Assembly (NCBI GenBank): GCA_017409785.1
Contig: JAFQSD010000004.1
Coordinates: 48,663 to 112,662, forward strand
Direction of reading: 5' to 3'
DNA from: Bacilli bacterium
GTDB taxonomy: Bacteria; Bacillota_I; Bacilli_A; RF39; UBA660
DNA: 64,000 bases
Numbering within the stretch: the stretch's first letter is position 1; every line of letters begins with the position of its first letter. This document shows, one piece after another, positions 6,334-55,625 of the stretch. Both the position numbers and the translations under genes were made by a program. A model generated the notes under the pieces. The model did no database searches. It was given only the letters and a program-made list of their open reading frames with translations, and was not told the DNA's origin.

Positions 6334-7461
6334 ATGAACATGGAAAAATTAAAAGTAATGGTTGTTGTAGGAACAAGACCAGAAATTATCAGATTATCAG
6401 AAGTAATCAAAGCAATTGATAAGTATTTTAATCTAGTATTAGTTCATACAGGACAAAACTATGATTATACACTTAATGAAATTTTCTTTAAAGAATTTGG
6501 TTTAAGAAAACCAGATTATTATCTAGATGCTCCTGGTAAGCATTTAGGAGAAACAGTAGGAAATATTATTTCTAAAACTTATGAAGTTATTCAACAAGAA
6601 AAACCAGATGCATTATTAGTATTAGGAGATACAAATAGTTGTTTAGCAGCATATTCTGCAAAAAGATTAAAAGTACCTATATTCCATATGGAAGCTGGTA
6701 ACAGATGTTTTGACTTTAATGTTCCAGAAGAAATTAATAGAAGAGTAGTTGATCATGTAAGTGATGTTAACTTAGCTTACACAGAAAATGCTAGACGTTA
6801 CTTAATTAATGAAGGAATTAAAAATGACTTCTTATATGTAACTGGTTCACCAATGAAAGAAGTTTTATTCAAGAATATGGATGGAATCAAAGCTTCAACT
6901 GCTTTAAAAGACTTAGGAATTGAAAAAGGAAAATACTTTGTAGTAAGTGCTCACAGAGAAGAAAATGTTGATATTCCTAAAAACTTCGAAAGTTTAATGA
7001 ATAGTTTAAATAAAGTTGCAGAAACATATCAAATGCCAATTATTTTCTCAACACATCCAAGAACTGCAAAGAGAATCAAGGAAAGTAAAATTAAACTTAA
7101 TCCATTAATCAGAAACTTAGAACCACTTGGATTCTTTGATTATGTAAATCTTCAAATGAATGCATATTGCGTACTTTCAGATAGTGGAACAATTCCAGAA
7201 GAAAGCGACATTTTAAACTTCCCTGGTATTTCAATGAGAACAAGTACTGAAAGACCAGAAGCATTAGATGCTGGAAGTATTGTACTAGGTGGTATTAATG
7301 AAAGAGACATTCTAAATGCAATTGAACTAGCAGTAAATGCTAAAGAAGAAAGATCAGAAAACCTAGTTAGAGATTATAAAGATACAAACGTATCACTAAA
7401 AGTAGTTAAAATCATTCAAAGCTACTATAATATCGTAAATATCAGAACATGGAAAAAATAA
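6334..7461 (+). CDS. capG: UDP-N-acetylglucosamine 2-epimerase, non-hydrolysing (CapG/FnlC type)
   Basis: VMVVVGTRPEIIRLSEVI, HTGQNYDY, VLGDTNS, HMEAGNRCFD, SDSGTIPEE. An alternative start exists at 6340. Confidence 0.9.
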   Translation: MNMEKLKVMVVVGTRPEIIRLSEVIKAIDKYFNLVLVHTGQNYDYTLNEIFFKEFGLRKPDYYLDAPGKHLGETVGNIISKTYEVIQQEKPDALLVLGDTNSCLAAYSAKRLKVPIFHMEAGNRCFDFNVPEEINRRVVDHVSDVNLAYTENARRYLINEGIKNDFLYVTGSPMKEVLFKNMDGIKASTALKDLGIEKGKYFVVSAHREENVDIPKNFESLMNSLNKVAETYQMPIIFSTHPRTAKRIKESKIKLNPLIRNLEPLGFFDYVNLQMNAYCVLSDSGTIPEESDILNFPGISMRTSTERPEALDAGSIVLGGINERDILNAIELAVNAKEERSENLVRDYKDTNVSLKVVKIIQSYYNIVNIRTWKK

Positions 7462-50045: not shown

Positions 50046-50075
50046 TAATATGATATACTAAAAATGGTGAATAAA

Positions 50076-50702
50076 ATGATTAATCAAGACATCAAAAAAT
50101 ATATAGAAAAAAATATCTATCCAGAATATCAAAAAAATGATAGTGGTCATAACATAGACCACATTAAATATGTTTTAGAAAGAAGTTTAAAGTTTGCTAA
50201 AACAGTTCCAGATATTAATCTAGACATGGTATATGTAATTGCAGCATTTCATGATATTGGTCATCATATAGATGCTAAAAACCATGAACAAGTATCTTCA
50301 GAAATACTGGAAAAAGATGAATTCATCAAAGATTATTTTACAAAAGATGAACTTAAAACAATGGTAGAAGCAGTAGTTGATCACAGAGCTAGTTTAGAGT
50401 ATATTCCACGTTCAATTTATGGAAAAATAGTCTCATCAGCAGATAGAAATACTGATATAGATATTCCTCTAAAACGTACATATTCTTATCGTTTAGAGCA
50501 TTTTCCAAATGCTACATTAGATGAAATCATTGAAGAATCACGTCAACATATTATTGATAAGTTTGGTTCAAATGGCTATGCCAAAGATAAAATATATTTT
50601 GAGGATGAAGATTATAATAATTTCTTAAAAGAAGTAGAATTATTCGCAGAAGATAAAGAACTTTTTAGAAAAAGATTTATTGAAGTAAATAATATTAAAT
50701 AA
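50076..50702 (+). CDS. HD-domain phosphohydrolase (YpgQ/YedJ-like)
   Basis: SGHNIDHIKYV, AAFHDIGH, SADR. TGATATACT at 50051-50059 favours the MINQD start at 50076 over 50064. Confidence 0.7.
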   Translation: MINQDIKKYIEKNIYPEYQKNDSGHNIDHIKYVLERSLKFAKTVPDINLDMVYVIAAFHDIGHHIDAKNHEQVSSEILEKDEFIKDYFTKDELKTMVEAVVDHRASLEYIPRSIYGKIVSSADRNTDIDIPLKRTYSYRLEHFPNATLDEIIEESRQHIIDKFGSNGYAKDKIYFEDEDYNNFLKEVELFAEDKELFRKRFIEVNNIK

Positions 50703-50718
50703 CAAAGTAGGTGATACA

Positions 50719-51318
50719 ATGTCCAAAATAAGTAATGTCCTAACTTTTATGCAATACTTAAGTACAGGTAAAAAATATAGTATTCAAGAATTATCTGAAA
50801 AATTAGAAGTATCACCACGTATGATTAGAGTCTATAAAGAAGAACTAGAAAAAGCAGGAATTTATGTAGATACAATAATGGGTCCATATGGAGGATATGT
50901 CTTAAATCAATCTATTAGAATGCCTGTTAGAAAATTTAAAAAGAAAGATTATGAACTACTAGAAAAATATATCAGTGAAGAAAAAGATTTAGATAGAAAA
51001 GAAAAATTAATTCTATTAAAAGATAAGATTCAAGGAGTATATGCAGGTAGTAAACAAGAAGCACGTGAGTTAAATCTAAAAGATGAAACTCAAAGTAAAT
51101 ATAATTTACTAACACGTGCCATCAAAGAAAGAAAAAAAGTAAAAATATTATATTATTCTTATAATAAAGGAGAAAATGAAAGAGTCATATGTCCAGCAGA
51201 AATGTTTTTATTTCAAGATGGTTGGTATGTCGCAGCATTCTGTCTTGTAAAGAATGATATCCGTCATTTTGAATTAAAAAGAATAATAAAATATGAATTA
51301 TTAAATGAAACTTTTTAA
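50719..51318 (+). CDS. HTH plus WYL domain transcriptional regulator
   Basis: N-terminal HTH YSIQELSEKLEVSPRMIRVYKEELEKAGIYV. The C-terminal WYL-like segment is KVKILYYSYNKGENERVICPAEMFLFQDGWYVAAFC. Confidence 0.7.
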   Translation: MSKISNVLTFMQYLSTGKKYSIQELSEKLEVSPRMIRVYKEELEKAGIYVDTIMGPYGGYVLNQSIRMPVRKFKKKDYELLEKYISEEKDLDRKEKLILLKDKIQGVYAGSKQEARELNLKDETQSKYNLLTRAIKERKKVKILYYSYNKGENERVICPAEMFLFQDGWYVAAFCLVKNDIRHFELKRIIKYELLNETF

Positions 51319-51328
51319 GTAGACTAAA

Positions 51329-51375
51329 TACTTCCTACTCAAGTGCTACTATGTACTTGAAAGGAAGTGTTTTTT
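51329..51375 (+). terminator. intrinsic terminator whose 3' arm contains the only RBS-like sequence for the next gene
   Basis: acttcct..tcaagt-loop-acttga..aggaagt, then gT7. The next ATG is at 51377. Confidence 0.6.
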
Positions 51376-51376
51376 T

Positions 51377-52300
51377 ATGAAACCAAACATGCATGATAAT
51401 TTTAAATTACTTGAAGAAAGAGTATTAGACTCTTTAGAAAAAACAGACTTAGAAAGGATTAAATATCATCTAGAAAGAATAAAAACACCAACGATAACAA
51501 CAGGAGTAGGTGGTTCAAGTGTAGCAAGTAATTTTGCAGCTAAAGTACTAAGTACCAAGAATGGTATAATAGCAGAACACCAAGAACCACGTGATATGTT
51601 ATATAAGCCACTACAAGGATATGACAATGTATTAGCTTGTAGTTATGGTGGAAGAAACTATGGAGTAAAAACATCATTTGCCAATGATTTAAATAAGTAC
51701 TTACTATCAAGAAATATATCTGATAATGAAGGAGTAAATAATTTAACTTATGATGCTTCTTTACCGGATGAAGATAGTTTTATCTCATTAGCCGCAACAC
51801 TTATGCCAATGAGTGTAATGCTAGCATATTATAATGATAATGATATTTCAGTAATAAAAGAAATTTTAGAAACAGCAAGAAAATATAATGTTAATATAGA
51901 TAAAGTATATGAAATATTAACTGGCTATGACACATCAACTGCATCAATCTATTTAGATTCAACTTTGGCTGAAGCGGGATTAGCATCACCTGTGGTTCAT
52001 GATAAATATTCAATGTGTCATGGTAGAACAACTCTCTCATACCATCATGACCACTCCTTAATTCATCTAGATAGAGGTACCGAATTAGATAAACTATATA
52101 AAGAGGAACTACCACAATATTACAACGGAGTAATAACTCTTGAGGGTAAGTTTGATGATCCAATAGTGGATGACTTTTATCTAACATATCAAGCAATGCT
52201 TTTATCAAAAGCAATGGCAGAATCTAAGGGTAGAGACCTATCTAGAATGGCATATTCCCCAGCAGTAAAAAAACTATATCGCTATAGTGGCGAAATGTAG
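51377..52300 (+). CDS. hypothetical protein with SIS-fold-like N-region
   Basis: TGVGGSSVASNFAAKVLSTKNGIIAEH...YDNVLACSYGGRN resembles the SIS G-x-G-x-S...A and S-x-S-G pattern. The assignment is weak. Confidence 0.45.
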   Translation: MKPNMHDNFKLLEERVLDSLEKTDLERIKYHLERIKTPTITTGVGGSSVASNFAAKVLSTKNGIIAEHQEPRDMLYKPLQGYDNVLACSYGGRNYGVKTSFANDLNKYLLSRNISDNEGVNNLTYDASLPDEDSFISLAATLMPMSVMLAYYNDNDISVIKEILETARKYNVNIDKVYEILTGYDTSTASIYLDSTLAEAGLASPVVHDKYSMCHGRTTLSYHHDHSLIHLDRGTELDKLYKEELPQYYNGVITLEGKFDDPIVDDFYLTYQAMLLSKAMAESKGRDLSRMAYSPAVKKLYRYSGEM

Positions 52301-52305
52301 TAAAA

Positions 52306-52334
52306 TTGACAATTATACTAAACTATGTTATAAT
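52306..52334 (+). promoter_or_regulatory. near-consensus sigma-A promoter of the ABC exporter leader
   Basis: TTGACA (52306-52311), a 17-nt spacer, and TGTTATAAT (52326-52334). Confidence 0.75.
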
Positions 52335-52402
52335 CTAGCCGTAGTAAATCAATTCGACCATTCGCGTTTTACTACCAGACAAACCTAGAGTTTGAAGGAA
52401 TA

Positions 52403-52447
52403 ATGAAGAGCCTTAAGAATCTCCTCATGAATGGCAAAAAACCGTAA
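52403..52447 (+). CDS. candidate 14-codon leader peptide (MKSLKNLLMNGKKP)
   Basis: gaagga lies 3-4 nt upstream of the ATG. The ORF lies in the 5' arm of the downstream terminator and ends Lys-Lys-Pro-stop. Confidence 0.4.
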   Translation: MKSLKNLLMNGKKP

Positions 52448-52497
52448 GCAAAATTATGGTTGTTTTTGCTAATTCATGAAAGGAGGTTCTTTTTTTG
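52417..52497 (+). terminator. leader terminator/attenuator upstream of the ABC exporter
   Basis: Long hairpin: gaatctcctcatgaat (52417-52432) pairs with attcatgaaaggaggttc (52472-52489). The inner stem is gcaaaaaacc/ggttgtttttgc. T8 follows. Confidence 0.65.
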
Positions 52498-52534
52498 ATA
52501 CAACCAGACAATTATATAAAAAGGAGAGAAGTAT

Positions 52535-54220
52535 ATGAAGTTATTTAAAGAAGTAATAAAAAACAATTTAAAATTAATGATAGTTTATTTTATACTTGGA
52601 ATAACATTTACATTCTTGGGGCTATATGCCACAAATTATTTTCAAGTAATAATTGACTCATTTGGAACAAATGAAATAACACTAGGAATGATAATATTTT
52701 ATGGAATAGTTTTATTAATAAATGCCATCATTGGATACATTGACAACTATCCAGACAGAGTTTTATTTAACAAACTTTATTTAGAATTCAAAAAGCAATC
52801 TATGAAAAAACTAAAGACAATAGATTATCAAGAATATCAAAAAATAGGAACAGGGAGATTATCACAACAAGTAGAAGAGGGTGCAACAGCAGCAAGAGAT
52901 GCAATCTATTTCTTCTGGTTAAAGTTACTAAGGGAACTTTTACCAGGGGCTATTATAAGTTTATTCTTCATAGGTAGAATTGAGTTCAAAGTGTTATTAA
53001 TAGTTTTAATTGGATACATATTTGTAATCATCCTAACAAACATTGTTCTAAAGGTTCTATACAATTTAAAAGAAAAAATAAACATCAATCAAGAGTTATT
53101 AAATAAACATTTAATTCGTGGTTTCATGGAATTAGTAGTTTTTAGAACTAACAAAAAGTATGATGTTGAATTAGAAAAAATAGATCTAGAAATAACTGAC
53201 ATTACTAAAGGAAAAACTAAAATAAAATTAGTTCATGAAATATTTTTCACAGCTTTTGAAATTCTAGTTACAATAATCAAAATAATAATGTTAGTATATG
53301 CAGTTATTTCAAAAAATCTGACAATAGGTGAAATAGTAGTTTTAATAACTCTATTAGGCAAAGCCTATGAACCAATTGCAATATTCAATGTTGAATACAT
53401 AGACTACAAATTAAACATAGTATCATTAAAACGCTATTTAGAATTCTTAGATTTACCAGATGTTTCAAATATGTATGAAGGAAAAACATTAAAAAATATT
53501 TCTGGTAATGTAGTCTTAAATGATGTAACATTTGCCTACAAAGAAAAACAAGTGCTAGAAAATATTAATCTTGAAATAAAAGAAAATTCAACTGTCGCAT
53601 TTGTTGGTGAAACAGGAAGTGGAAAGTCAACAATCATAAAATTAATTGCTGGACTAATAAAACCTCAATCAGGAAATGTATTAATAGATAATAAAGATCT
53701 AACTAAAATAAAATTAGATTCATACTATGATTACTTATCTTATTTATCACAAGATTCACCTATCTTTGACGGAACGCTAAAAGAAAACATTGTTTTTGAC
53801 AAAAATGTATCAGATGAGAAAATAATAGAAGTATTAAAACTTGTTGAATTAGAAAAGTTTTATTCAAAATTAAAAAATGGTTTAGAGACTGAACTAGGAG
53901 AAAAAGGAATCTTAATTTCTGGAGGAGAACGTCAAAGAATAGCTCTTGCGAGACTTTTCTTTGATGATTCAAAAATAATAATTTTAGATGAAGCAACATC
54001 AGCAATGGACAACATAACAGAAGAAAAAGTAATGAATTCAATCATGAAAAAACTAGAAAATAAAACTTTCATCATAATTGCTCATCGACTAAACACAATA
54101 AGGAATGTAGATAAAATCTTTGTTCTAAGAAATGGCTCAATAACTGACACAGGGACATACAAATCATTACAAAAAAATAGTGAATATTTCGAAGAACTAT
54201 CATTGAAAAAAGTAAACTAA
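52535..54220 (+). CDS. ABC exporter, fused permease-ATPase half-transporter (multidrug/peptide exporter type)
   Basis: Six N-terminal TM helices, Walker A GETGSGKST, signature LSGGERQR and Walker B IIILDEATS. Confidence 0.9.
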   Translation: MKLFKEVIKNNLKLMIVYFILGITFTFLGLYATNYFQVIIDSFGTNEITLGMIIFYGIVLLINAIIGYIDNYPDRVLFNKLYLEFKKQSMKKLKTIDYQEYQKIGTGRLSQQVEEGATAARDAIYFFWLKLLRELLPGAIISLFFIGRIEFKVLLIVLIGYIFVIILTNIVLKVLYNLKEKININQELLNKHLIRGFMELVVFRTNKKYDVELEKIDLEITDITKGKTKIKLVHEIFFTAFEILVTIIKIIMLVYAVISKNLTIGEIVVLITLLGKAYEPIAIFNVEYIDYKLNIVSLKRYLEFLDLPDVSNMYEGKTLKNISGNVVLNDVTFAYKEKQVLENINLEIKENSTVAFVGETGSGKSTIIKLIAGLIKPQSGNVLIDNKDLTKIKLDSYYDYLSYLSQDSPIFDGTLKENIVFDKNVSDEKIIEVLKLVELEKFYSKLKNGLETELGEKGILISGGERQRIALARLFFDDSKIIILDEATSAMDNITEEKVMNSIMKKLENKTFIIIAHRLNTIRNVDKIFVLRNGSITDTGTYKSLQKNSEYFEELSLKKVN

Positions 54221-54258
54221 TATGTTACTATTAAATTGCAAGGAAACTTGTACAAAAA

Positions 54259-54292
54259 AAGGATACATTTGAGTGCCTCAAACGTATTCCTT
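54259..54292 (-). terminator. minus-strand-oriented terminator (serves the convergent sORF transcript)
   Basis: On the minus strand: aaggaatacgtttgag-gca-ctcaaatgtatcctt followed by T7. Confidence 0.55.
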
Positions 54293-54309
54293 TCTTGGAA
54301 CATAAGGAT

Positions 54310-54343
54310 GAGTCTAACTTATGTTAGACTCTGTTTTTATTTT
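54310..54343 (+). terminator. plus-strand terminator of the ABC exporter gene
   Basis: gagtctaac-ttat-gttagactc followed by tgTTTTTaTTTT. Confidence 0.65.
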
Positions 54344-54414
54344 AGAAGTAATAATATCACAACTAATAATAGAAGGAGTATTATGGAGTATAAAGAACAT
54401 TCTCTTTTACTCAT
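54337..54414 (-). CDS. 25-aa hydrophobic peptide, type I toxin-like (MSKRECSLYSIILLLLLVVILLLLK)
   Basis: Not in the ORF track because it is too short. Near-perfect SD AAAGGAGGTG lies 6 nt upstream of the ATG. The peptide is a single TM helix with a charged N-terminus and a C-terminal Lys. Confidence 0.45.
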   Translation of the reverse strand: MSKRECSLYSIILLLLLVVILLLLK

Positions 54415-54680
54415 AATAATCACCTCCTTTCTTGAATTTCTCCAAGAAAGAAAACATTCCTAAATGTATCCGAAAACGTATGTTATCAACCTCAAAATGA
54501 AATGACAAACTGCCAAATATTAAAATTAAGAGAATTATGAATATAGAAAAATCAGTCATATTAGGCTGATTTTTTCTTTCTATAAAAAAACTATCTTTAA
54601 ATAACTAAAATATTAATAAACTAATATTCTAAAATAAACAATTATGATATAATGTAGTCTACTAAGAAAGAGGTGTTCAT

Positions 54681-55625
54681 ATGAAAGTGTTATTATTCAC
54701 TCACAAAAATGATATTGATGGTATGGGAAATGCCATATTAGCTCAACTTGCTTTTGATGAAGTTAATTATGTTTTATGCGGAACATTTGACTTAACAGAT
54801 TTAGTTGAAAAATACTATAAAGATGGAAGTATTTATGATTACGATCGAGTATATGTTACAGATTTATGTTTACAAGATCCAATTCTTTCAAAGATAGCTC
54901 AAGATGAAAAAATATCTAAAAAAATTCAAGTATTTGATCATCACAAAACGTTTGCAGAACCAAAGTATACAAATCATCCATTCATAACAGTGCAATTAGA
55001 AAATGAAAAAGGTCTATGTTGTGGAACAAGTATTTTCTATAATCACTTATTACAAGAAGGACTACTTGCCTCAGACAACCAAGCAATTGCCGAATTTGTT
55101 GAATTAACAAGACAACATGATACATGGGAATGGAGAAATATATATAATAATGAAAAGTCTCGTGAATTATCAATTCTATTTGATGCTCTAGGTTGTGATG
55201 GCTATATTTCATTAATGACTGAAAAATTAAGAAATAAAGAAACAAAAGTTTTTGATTATGATTCTATGGAAAGAACTTTAATTGATAATCGTAAACAGCA
55301 AATAGCTGAGAAATGTAAATTCTATGCAGATAGAATTCATTATAGAGAAATATTAGGAATGAAAGCAGGAATTGTTTTTATAACATATGAATACCGAAAT
55401 GAACTTGCTGAATATTTTAGAGAAAATAAATTTGATATGGACTTTACAATGATGATTGCTTTTGATCCAGGTGTAGTAGCATATAGAAGTGTTAAAGAAG
55501 GAGTACATGTTAGACCAGTAGCTGAACTATTTGGTGGTAAAGGTCATGAAAAAGCAGCTACTAATCCAATAACTGATGAAATGTTAACTGAAATATTAAA
55601 AATATTAACAGAAGAAAAGAAATAA
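54681..55625 (+). CDS. DHH family phosphoesterase
   Basis: FTHKNDIDGMGNA (DxD), FDHHKT (DHH), GGKGHEKAA (the GGGH-like motif of DHHA1). Extended -10 TGATATAAT lies at about 54642. Confidence 0.75.
   Translation: MKVLLFTHKNDIDGMGNAILAQLAFDEVNYVLCGTFDLTDLVEKYYKDGSIYDYDRVYVTDLCLQDPILSKIAQDEKISKKIQVFDHHKTFAEPKYTNHPFITVQLENEKGLCCGTSIFYNHLLQEGLLASDNQAIAEFVELTRQHDTWEWRNIYNNEKSRELSILFDALGCDGYISLMTEKLRNKETKVFDYDSMERTLIDNRKQQIAEKCKFYADRIHYREILGMKAGIVFITYEYRNELAEYFRENKFDMDFTMMIAFDPGVVAYRSVKEGVHVRPVAELFGGKGHEKAATNPITDEMLTEILKILTEEKK

Follow-up and report, generated by a model that had tools for sequence, protein, structure and literature searches.

A candidate riboswitch-type ON switch in the leader of an ABC exporter gene from uncultured gut and rumen bacteria

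In the fluoride (crcB) and guanidine-I (ykkC) riboswitches, a ligand-stabilised aptamer deprives a terminator of its 5′ arm, and the controlled genes remove or modify the toxic ligand. The aminoglycoside leader RNA works at the level of translation, and whether it is a riboswitch is contested. This leader precedes the aac/aad genes of class 1 integrons, and one published account proposes that it senses the drug directly (PMC7588185). The guanidine-IV riboswitch (mepA motif) is a transcriptional ON switch before an efflux pump in which the P1 loop contacts the apical loop of the terminator (bioRxiv 10.1101/2020.10.21.349134), and in Bacillus subtilis the induction of bmrCD needs translation of the small open reading frame (ORF) bmrB (PMC4191407). 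Here we analyzed the leader of an ATP-binding cassette (ABC) exporter gene in a 64,000-nt stretch of contig JAFQSD010000004.1 from a Bacilli bacterium (assembly GCA_017409785.1); we refer to this whole stretch as the window and use its positions throughout. A preliminary description of this DNA had proposed a leader-peptide attenuator, in which a ribosome on a small ORF (sORF) would prevent formation of a terminator. From the analysis below we consider it probable that the leader (about 52341–52506, forward strand) represents an uncatalogued family of structured cis-regulatory RNAs that works as a riboswitch-type transcriptional ON switch, and we infer that the RNA itself directly binds the effector, a small molecule.

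Among described systems guanidine-IV comes closest. Like it, the leader would be a transcriptional ON switch before an efflux pump, in which a contact between the loop of a 5′ hairpin and terminator sequence excludes the full terminator. The two differ in the partner of the P1 loop, which is the terminator apical loop in mepA and the 5′-arm sequence GAAUGG here, where an extra antiterminator helix (P3) is also proposed. Their sequences are unrelated, with no Rfam match, and their genes differ as well: MepA/MATE-like and other guanidine-riboswitch genes follow the mepA motif, whereas a methyltransferase, an ABCB exporter and a small nucleotidyltransferase follow the present one. With crcB and ykkC the leader would share its genetic logic, but the architecture and sequence of the aptamer are different, again with no Rfam match. 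The aminoglycoside leader is similar in lying before antibiotic-modifying enzymes that include nucleotidyltransferases; the present motif differs in being terminator-based, supported by covariation and carried on contigs of metagenome-assembled genomes (MAGs) from uncultured Bacilli, Firmicutes and Clostridia, the relation in sequence being judged by the Rfam result only. Like bmrB-bmrCD, the leader combines an intrinsic terminator and alternative stem-loops with an overlapping small ORF before an ABC multidrug-type exporter (PMC4191407), but here the frame, length and presence of the ORF are not conserved, and a covarying 5′ hairpin loop and pseudoknot lie outside any ORF.

Homologous leaders, which we designate by L and a number, were collected in two ways. 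A protein-based scan with one genome per species gave seven loci with this exporter at 58–86% identity, in uncultured Bacilli, Firmicutes and Clostridia from goat, sheep, water deer, rumen and human gut, and the leaders of all seven share long, near-identical nucleotide blocks although the proteins have diverged to about 60%. A DNA pattern made from two of these blocks (CATTCGCG N50–75 ATGAATGGCAAA) matched at least 120 metagenome stretches; among the matches listed, 108 show the AATT feature in the P1 loop and were counted as real, the window and the seven protein-derived loci included, and about 20 are chance matches to the pattern. The unbiased set comprises the loci found through proteins alone, namely the window, L001–L006, L013, L161 and L162–L168, and the motif is present in every protein-derived locus for which DNA was available. 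All 14 protein-derived ABC loci (58–86% identity) carry it, L001–L006 and L013 by reading and L162–L168 by R1, a covariance model of the aptamer, and R1 also finds it at L161, which encodes a protein 70% identical to a 158-aa protein (p158) discussed below. Within the window, R1 matched a single copy at 52339–52440 with 112 bits, the next match reaching 13.6 bits. There was no R1 match before ABC homologues of at most 49% identity or before p158 homologues of 51–54% identity, and a BLAST search with the leader found no match among PLSDB plasmids or INPHARED phages. We met the motif repeatedly in human-gut and rumen metagenome contigs; it is present in low-GC Bacilli, and leader variants of about 53% GC also occur.

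To describe the fold, we counted covariation on MAFFT alignments that had not been fitted to a structure. The first element, hairpin P1 (52341–52375), pairs GUAGUAAA (52341–52348) with UUUACUAC (52368–52375) around a conserved 19-nt loop, UCAAUUCGACCAUUCGCGU (52349–52367); changes on both sides were found at seven of its eight pairs, about 95% of the alignment cells are paired, and RNAalifold recovers it de novo. The P1 loop segment UUCG(A/C)CCAUU may bear a short resemblance to part of helix 92 of 23S rRNA, and we make no claim from it. The hairpin P2 (52380–52394), formed in the window by CAAAC and GUUUG, varies in both length and sequence; most variants have some hairpin here, and because of the variation in length only 69% of cells in the MAFFT alignment are paired, which makes it the weakest element. 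A conserved purine-rich joiner, J2/3 (AAGGAAUA, 52395–52402; alignments A1, A2 and A5), follows, and together with the first AU of P3 it gives an RRUAAU motif in most subtypes, with GAAUGGU in L065 and UUAGCAAU in L166. P3, the proposed antiterminator helix (52403–52428), pairs AUGAAGAG (52403–52410) with CUCCUCAU (52421–52428) around the loop CCUUAAGAAU, which contains a conserved AGAAUC. Both sides change at four of the eight P3 pairs, with the variants AUAGAAAA/UUUUCUAU, AUGACGGA/UCCGCAU and AUAAAGAA/UUCUUUAU, and P3 is the local minimum free energy (MFE) structure in most variants, although a weak one (−2.7 kcal/mol in the window).

The pseudoknot joins CCAUUC in the P1 loop (52358–52363) to GAAUGG directly 3′ of P3 (52429–52434), the latter also being part of the terminator 5′ arm. 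CCAUUC:GAAUGG is the majority state, several leaders have UCAUUC:GAAUGG, L166–L168 have UUAUUC:GAAUGA, and L164 has UUAUUC:GAAUAA; all cells (100%) are paired, with changes on both sides at two of the six pairs. This covariation was seen only in loci found through their proteins, and it is therefore not an artefact of the DNA search pattern. When P1, P3 and the pseudoknot are counted jointly, 93% of the cells are paired, versus 30–54% when the partners are slid by one to three columns, and none of 500 shuffles reached the observed covariation. Judged from these alignments, what is conserved family-wide is an RNA structure with covarying helices and not a reading frame. The conserved 19-nt P1 loop and the pseudoknot lie outside any ORF and are left unexplained by a leader-peptide model.

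Downstream of and overlapping this fold is a predicted intrinsic terminator (52417–52496), consisting of a hairpin at 52417–52489 (5′ arm 52417–52443, apical region 52444–52457, 3′ arm 52458–52489; −33.9 kcal/mol) and a U7 tract at 52490–52496. The two arm sequences named in the preliminary description, GAATCTCCTCATGAAT from 52417 and ATTCATGAAAGGAGGTTC at 52472–52489, indeed form the base of one continuous hairpin, and the T run that follows has seven residues and not the eight it gave. A simple terminator scan did not list the 52417–52489 hairpin, which has about 31 interrupted pairs versus the 20 counted by that scan. Of 50 homologous leaders, 48 fit a regular expression for the 3′ arm and T-tract, with hairpins of −23.6 to −41.2 kcal/mol, and in the two that it missed (L063 and L140) reading of the sequence shows the same arm, GGAGGTT, together with a T-rich tract. 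By these sequence features the hairpin and U7 constitute an intrinsic (Rho-independent) terminator, at which termination is predicted. The 201-nt leader as a whole has an MFE of −50.2 kcal/mol (z = −4.5 versus dinucleotide shuffles), and none of 200 shuffles was as stable.

The 3′ strands of P3 and of the pseudoknot, which together span 52421–52434, also make up the centre of the terminator 5′ arm, so that the fold and the terminator are mutually exclusive. Terminator pairs at columns 107/176 and 108/175 of alignment A1 also covary, and they use the strand that pairs in P3; because covariation ties this strand to the P3 5′ strand on the one hand and to the terminator 3′ arm on the other, the same nucleotides appear to have been selected for two partners. 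We propose that the nascent RNA would fold into the 5′-terminal P1, the variable P2 and the weak P3, with CCAUUC of the P1 loop pairing with GAAUGG 3′ of P3. By default, P3 alone (−2.7 kcal/mol) would lose to the terminator (−33.9 kcal/mol, followed by U7), so that transcription would stop at about 52496 and the exporter would be off. Upon induction, an effector would stabilise the fold of P1, P3 and the pseudoknot and leave the terminator 3′ arm without a partner; with the terminator prevented, RNA polymerase would read through into the exporter gene. The weakness of P3, and an aptamer no more stable than its shuffles, point to termination as the default and to a need for a fold-stabilising factor for read-through.

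The position of the promoter agrees with this arrangement of the 5′ end. A sigma-A-type promoter occupies 52306–52334 (+), with a −35 TTGACA at 52306–52311, a 17-nt spacer and an extended −10 TGtTATAAT at 52326–52334, in agreement with the consensus promoter first reported, and in a promoter scan it was the sole 12/12 site with a TG extension within 51000–55000. The predicted transcript start, at about 52341, is the first base of P1. Of 50 homologous leaders, 48 have a −10-like hexamer that ends 5–7 nt 5′ of P1, and a −35-like hexamer is also present in 42; since this spacing is conserved, the transcript should begin with P1, leaving no room for an upstream ORF. The regulated gene (52520–54220, +) has the Shine-Dalgarno (SD) sequence AAAGGAGAG at 52520–52528 and a coding region at 52535–54220, and encodes a 561-aa ABCB-type exporter half-transporter with ABC_tran and ABC_membrane domains, in line with the original assignment. 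Its best sequence matches in the PDB are ABCB1/ABCB4, and it is monocistronic by the ORF map.

Beyond the U-tract, at 52500–52506 (+), we found an element, A′, with the sequence ACAACCA, which is complementary to UGGUUGU (52457–52463) in the 3′ strand of the upper terminator stem. In most leaders A′ is a perfect complement of 7–10 nt located 0–9 nt past the U-tract, and its mean longest perfect complement is 6.81 nt, versus 4.97 ± 0.20 nt when partners were permuted among leaders (0 of 2000 permutations). It covaries with its partner, as UGGUUGU/ACAACCA, UGGUUGC/GCAACCA (L040), UGUGAUUG/CAAUCACA, GUGGUA/UACCAC and UUGGUAUUUU/AAAAUACCAA, and in high-GC variants a downstream segment pairs with the lower 3′ arm instead. 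As A′ exists only in read-through RNA, it has no part in the termination decision; speculatively, it may keep the hairpin of about 30 bp from re-forming in the mRNA, or may expose the SD-like sequence AAAGGAGG. This near-perfect SD-like sequence lies in the terminator 3′ arm (52472–52489 in the window) together with an ATG (cATGAAAGGAGG), and it is not kept in high-GC variants, which have GCCGGAAGA there. At several loci (L036, L055, L077 and L086) this ATG is the start of an ORF, MKGGSF…, which continues in frame into the downstream gene and is probably a by-product of the stem sequence.

The genes directly downstream of the motif could be classified at 93 loci among the matches listed, as a methyltransferase at 55, an ABC exporter at 27, p158 at 10 and a HAM1/RdgB nucleoside triphosphate pyrophosphatase (HAM1) at one. 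The motif is always found immediately 5′ of its gene and in the same orientation, with the gene start about 70–115 nt past the conserved block, and at most loci the next same-strand ORF of at least 70 aa starts well past the end of the first gene, so that from their sequence layout the controlled genes look like single-gene units. No regulator gene is conserved beside the leader, and upstream neighbours differ among loci. None of the exporter, the methyltransferase, p158 and the other associated proteins obtained an NCBIfam name above its cutoffs. The methyltransferase is a class I S-adenosylmethionine (SAM) methyltransferase of about 253 aa whose structural model is of low confidence (predicted local distance difference test, pLDDT, 68); its best fold matches, TmtA, GtmA, RebM, TleD and BioC, come ahead of rRNA methyltransferases, which is only a hint from the model that it may act on small molecules. 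The p158 query itself has no Pfam assignment, and members of its family give weak matches to nucleotidyltransferase families including PF10706 (aminoglycoside 2″-adenylyltransferase). A model of p158 with pLDDT 90.5 matches the folds of ANT(2″)-Ia, LnuA, MenT1 and TM1012 (TM 0.6–0.7), suggesting an ANT(2″)-Ia/LnuA/MenT-like nucleotidyltransferase. A PDB sequence search with p158 had returned only de novo TIM-barrel designs, which we judged spurious. Because the single-gene units that follow this RNA would encode an efflux pump, a putatively small-molecule SAM methyltransferase and an ANT(2″)/LnuA-like nucleotidyltransferase, the signal is probably a toxic or xenobiotic compound. Going further, we put forward tentatively, and with considerable doubt, that the motif is a riboswitch class that directly binds a gut or rumen antibiotic or xenobiotic and induces a distributed resistance regulon of efflux, methylation and nucleotidylation without the help of a ribosome or protein.

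The leader did not match any catalogued RNA family. Against Rfam 15 (cmscan, E ≤ 10), the window leader gave only chance microRNA and small nucleolar RNA matches with E ≥ 0.34, in keeping with the earlier statement that it matched no known riboswitch core, and seven related loci, including high-GC, subtype-B and HAM1 variants, gave no match for the motif at E ≤ 0.1. The whole window, scanned at the gathering threshold, returned only an unrelated T-box leader (RF00230, 60127–60317, +), with 93.1 bits versus a gathering score of 93.

Several points weigh against the reading of this leader as a new riboswitch-type family. RNAalifold alone yields only P1, so that P3 and the pseudoknot stand on covariation and not on energy, and the isolated 98-nt aptamer is no more stable than shuffles (z = 0.05). 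Most of the sequences come from a pattern that fixes CATTCGCG and ATGAATGGCAAA, which renders invariance of those blocks meaningless in that set, and we used the set only outside the blocks. The gene census is drawn from this same pattern-biased sample, among the matches listed; the gene set may be coherent as detoxification or efflux. We found no description of the motif in the literature, including the survey PMC11109978, although coverage was incomplete and an earlier description outside Rfam is possible. The sensing of a small molecule is putative, and the fold might instead be stabilised by a protein or another macromolecule acting in trans. Finally, with an SD-like AGGA and an AUG present in the window's subtype (28 of 50 leaders), some translation of the sORF may occur there.

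We therefore weighed this reading against four alternatives, beginning with the one in which a ribosome on the sORF covers the terminator 5′ arm, so that translation inhibitors induce the exporter much as in bmrB-bmrCD. The 14-codon sORF (MKSLKNLLMNGKKP-stop, 52403–52447, +) is present in the window as described, spans P3, the pseudoknot strand and the terminator 5′ arm, and has an SD-like AGGA, with only 3 nt to the AUG; the AUG and SD-like sequence are kept in 28 of the 28 leaders of the window's subtype, the regulated genes resemble resistance genes, and distant exporter homologues (L007–L010, below) have a frame-conserved leader sORF, so control of this kind exists in the wider family. Across 50 non-redundant leaders, however, the first ATG stands in frame 0 relative to the conserved block in 28, in frame 1 in 16 and in frame 2 in five, and is absent from one; seven of the ORFs stop after 2–4 codons, short of the terminator arm, and lengths run from 2 to at least 43 codons. 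This lack of conservation was an outcome that the preliminary description had itself named as speaking against its proposal. The SD-like sequence is essentially confined to the frame-0 subtype, being missing from 15 of 16 frame-1 and all five frame-2 leaders, and in the subtypes without it the stop may come after as few as 2 or more than 43 codons. Among leaders of the window's own subtype, codons in the P3 loop can be replaced by a stop (L061 and L063) or changed from K to W or from K to R, which are nonsense and radical substitutions, and of all 50 leaders only the window and L001 have the Lys-Lys-Pro-stop ending, earlier taken as a slow-termination signal. Moreover, the nucleotides of the AUG and AGGA belong to P3 and J2/3 and are conserved for RNA reasons, and ribosome-mediated attenuation leaves the P1 loop and the covarying GAAUGG pseudoknot without an explanation. 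We thus regard it as very unlikely: a conditional-terminator leader before the exporter stands, and the 5′ arm is truly the contested strand, but a ribosome on the sORF as the sensor is unsupported. As far as can be told from the sequences, the sORF is not the conserved unit, and its position over the terminator arm can be a by-product of the conserved RNA sequence. A mixed arrangement, in which the RNA fold is the primary switch and translation of the sORF modulates it in the window's subtype, for example through ribosomes unfolding P3 and the pseudoknot, would account for the AGGA-N3-AUG kept in all 28 frame-0 leaders. The same nucleotides are nonetheless conserved as RNA, RRUAAU(G/A)A, in most subtypes that have no such ORF, the 3-nt spacing from SD to AUG is poor, and two frame-0 members (L061 and L063) stop at codon 5, leaving this arrangement very unlikely in our estimation.

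The structural evidence fits equally a model of factor-dependent antitermination, in which an RNA-binding protein acting in trans, a 30S subunit or a tRNA stabilises the P1 loop, P3 and pseudoknot and no small molecule is bound, since covariation is blind to the type of effector; the near-perfect SD-like AAAGGAGG in the terminator 3′ arm of most subtypes could also be counted in its favour. That arm is lost in the high-GC variants (GCCGGAAGA), however, there is no conserved adjoining regulator gene, with neighbours differing in every lineage, and no Rfam model of ribonucleic antiterminator (RAT), ANTAR, PyrR or T-box elements matches the leader. A motif that occurs in low-GC Bacilli and in variants of about 53% GC, before unrelated genes, fits a self-contained sensor better, and we hold the involvement of such a factor to be unlikely. 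The last alternative is that there is no regulation at all, in which case the hairpin would be a constitutive terminator that leaks, or would form the 3′ terminus of a stable trans-acting small RNA (sRNA) of about 156 nt. The terminated product would indeed have a 5′ hairpin and a 3′ terminator, as is typical of stable sRNAs. Against this, the motif is always directly upstream of a gene on the same strand, with the start about 70–115 nt past the block, the helix that competes for the terminator arm (P3 with the pseudoknot) covaries, and a conserved element lies beyond the U-tract, all of which render the absence of regulation highly improbable; any role of the terminated RNA in trans would be additional to its role in cis. 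The riboswitch-type ON switch is accordingly the reading that we prefer.

As a separate matter, the targets of LicT/SacY (RAT), ANTAR, PyrR and the T-box were considered as candidate identities for the leader and rejected. By reading of the sequence, the leader lacks the features of all four, having no GGAUUGUUACUG RAT half, no tandem hexaloop hairpins and no specifier or T-box sequence. The likeness to RAT is limited to GGCAAAA..CC in the window and is not conserved beyond GGCAAA.

The distant exporter homologues L007–L010 (Eisenbergiella, two Lachnospiraceae MAGs and a Clostridium isolate; 42–49% identity) have a different conserved leader, located at L007:2770–3000, L008:2840–3000, L009:2830–3000 and L010:2810–3000, with an SD and a frame-conserved sORF (..RG..SVQ(L/P)..). 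It holds the same position before a homologous exporter but is unrelated in sequence to the present motif, and neither Rfam nor the R1 covariance model gave a match to it. It can form the alternative hairpins CTCAGTACAG/TGTACTGAGG and GTACAGTTG/CAACTGTAC, with a clear T-run after the second only in L009. On this sequence evidence, it is a candidate for a genuine leader-peptide attenuator.

Some further observations concern the surroundings of the motif. In the window, genes for an HD-domain protein and a WYL/helix-turn-helix regulator lie two and three genes upstream of the leader (50064–51318), and HD-domain genes lie directly upstream of it in L165 and L166 as well; no link to the leader was established. 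Terminator-like hairpins follow the ABC gene on both strands within 54263–54575, at 54310–54331 (+), 54546–54575 (+), 54456–54421 (−) and 54287–54263 (−), and a 75-aa ORF with a TTG start (54236–54463), which had no family match, is probably not a gene. On the L058 contig, the promoter and leader occur twice, at 1867–1966 and 6352–6480; the copies are separated by a methyltransferase gene, followed by RhuM, NERD and metallophosphatase genes, and the second copy ends at GAATG, without the terminator, before a nucleoside 2-deoxyribosyltransferase gene. This double leader suggests an insertion or duplication event. Homologues of p158 without the leader (L156 and L159; 51–54% identity) are found in tight operons with genes for a TipAS antibiotic-recognition domain protein, an AAA_18/dNK-like kinase, a GNAT acetyltransferase and peptide deformylase.

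If confirmed, the motif would add a new orphan class to the known riboswitches, with a clear ON architecture, a pseudoknot supported by covariation and three kinds of detoxification or resistance genes under its control. With its ligand identified, it could become the first natural RNA sensor of an antibiotic-like xenobiotic to be well supported. Its covariance model could be used as a metagenome marker for inducible resistance-like genes, and the leader is a possible inducible expression element. The identity of the ligand would reveal the compound that these uncultured Bacilli and Clostridia must expel or modify.

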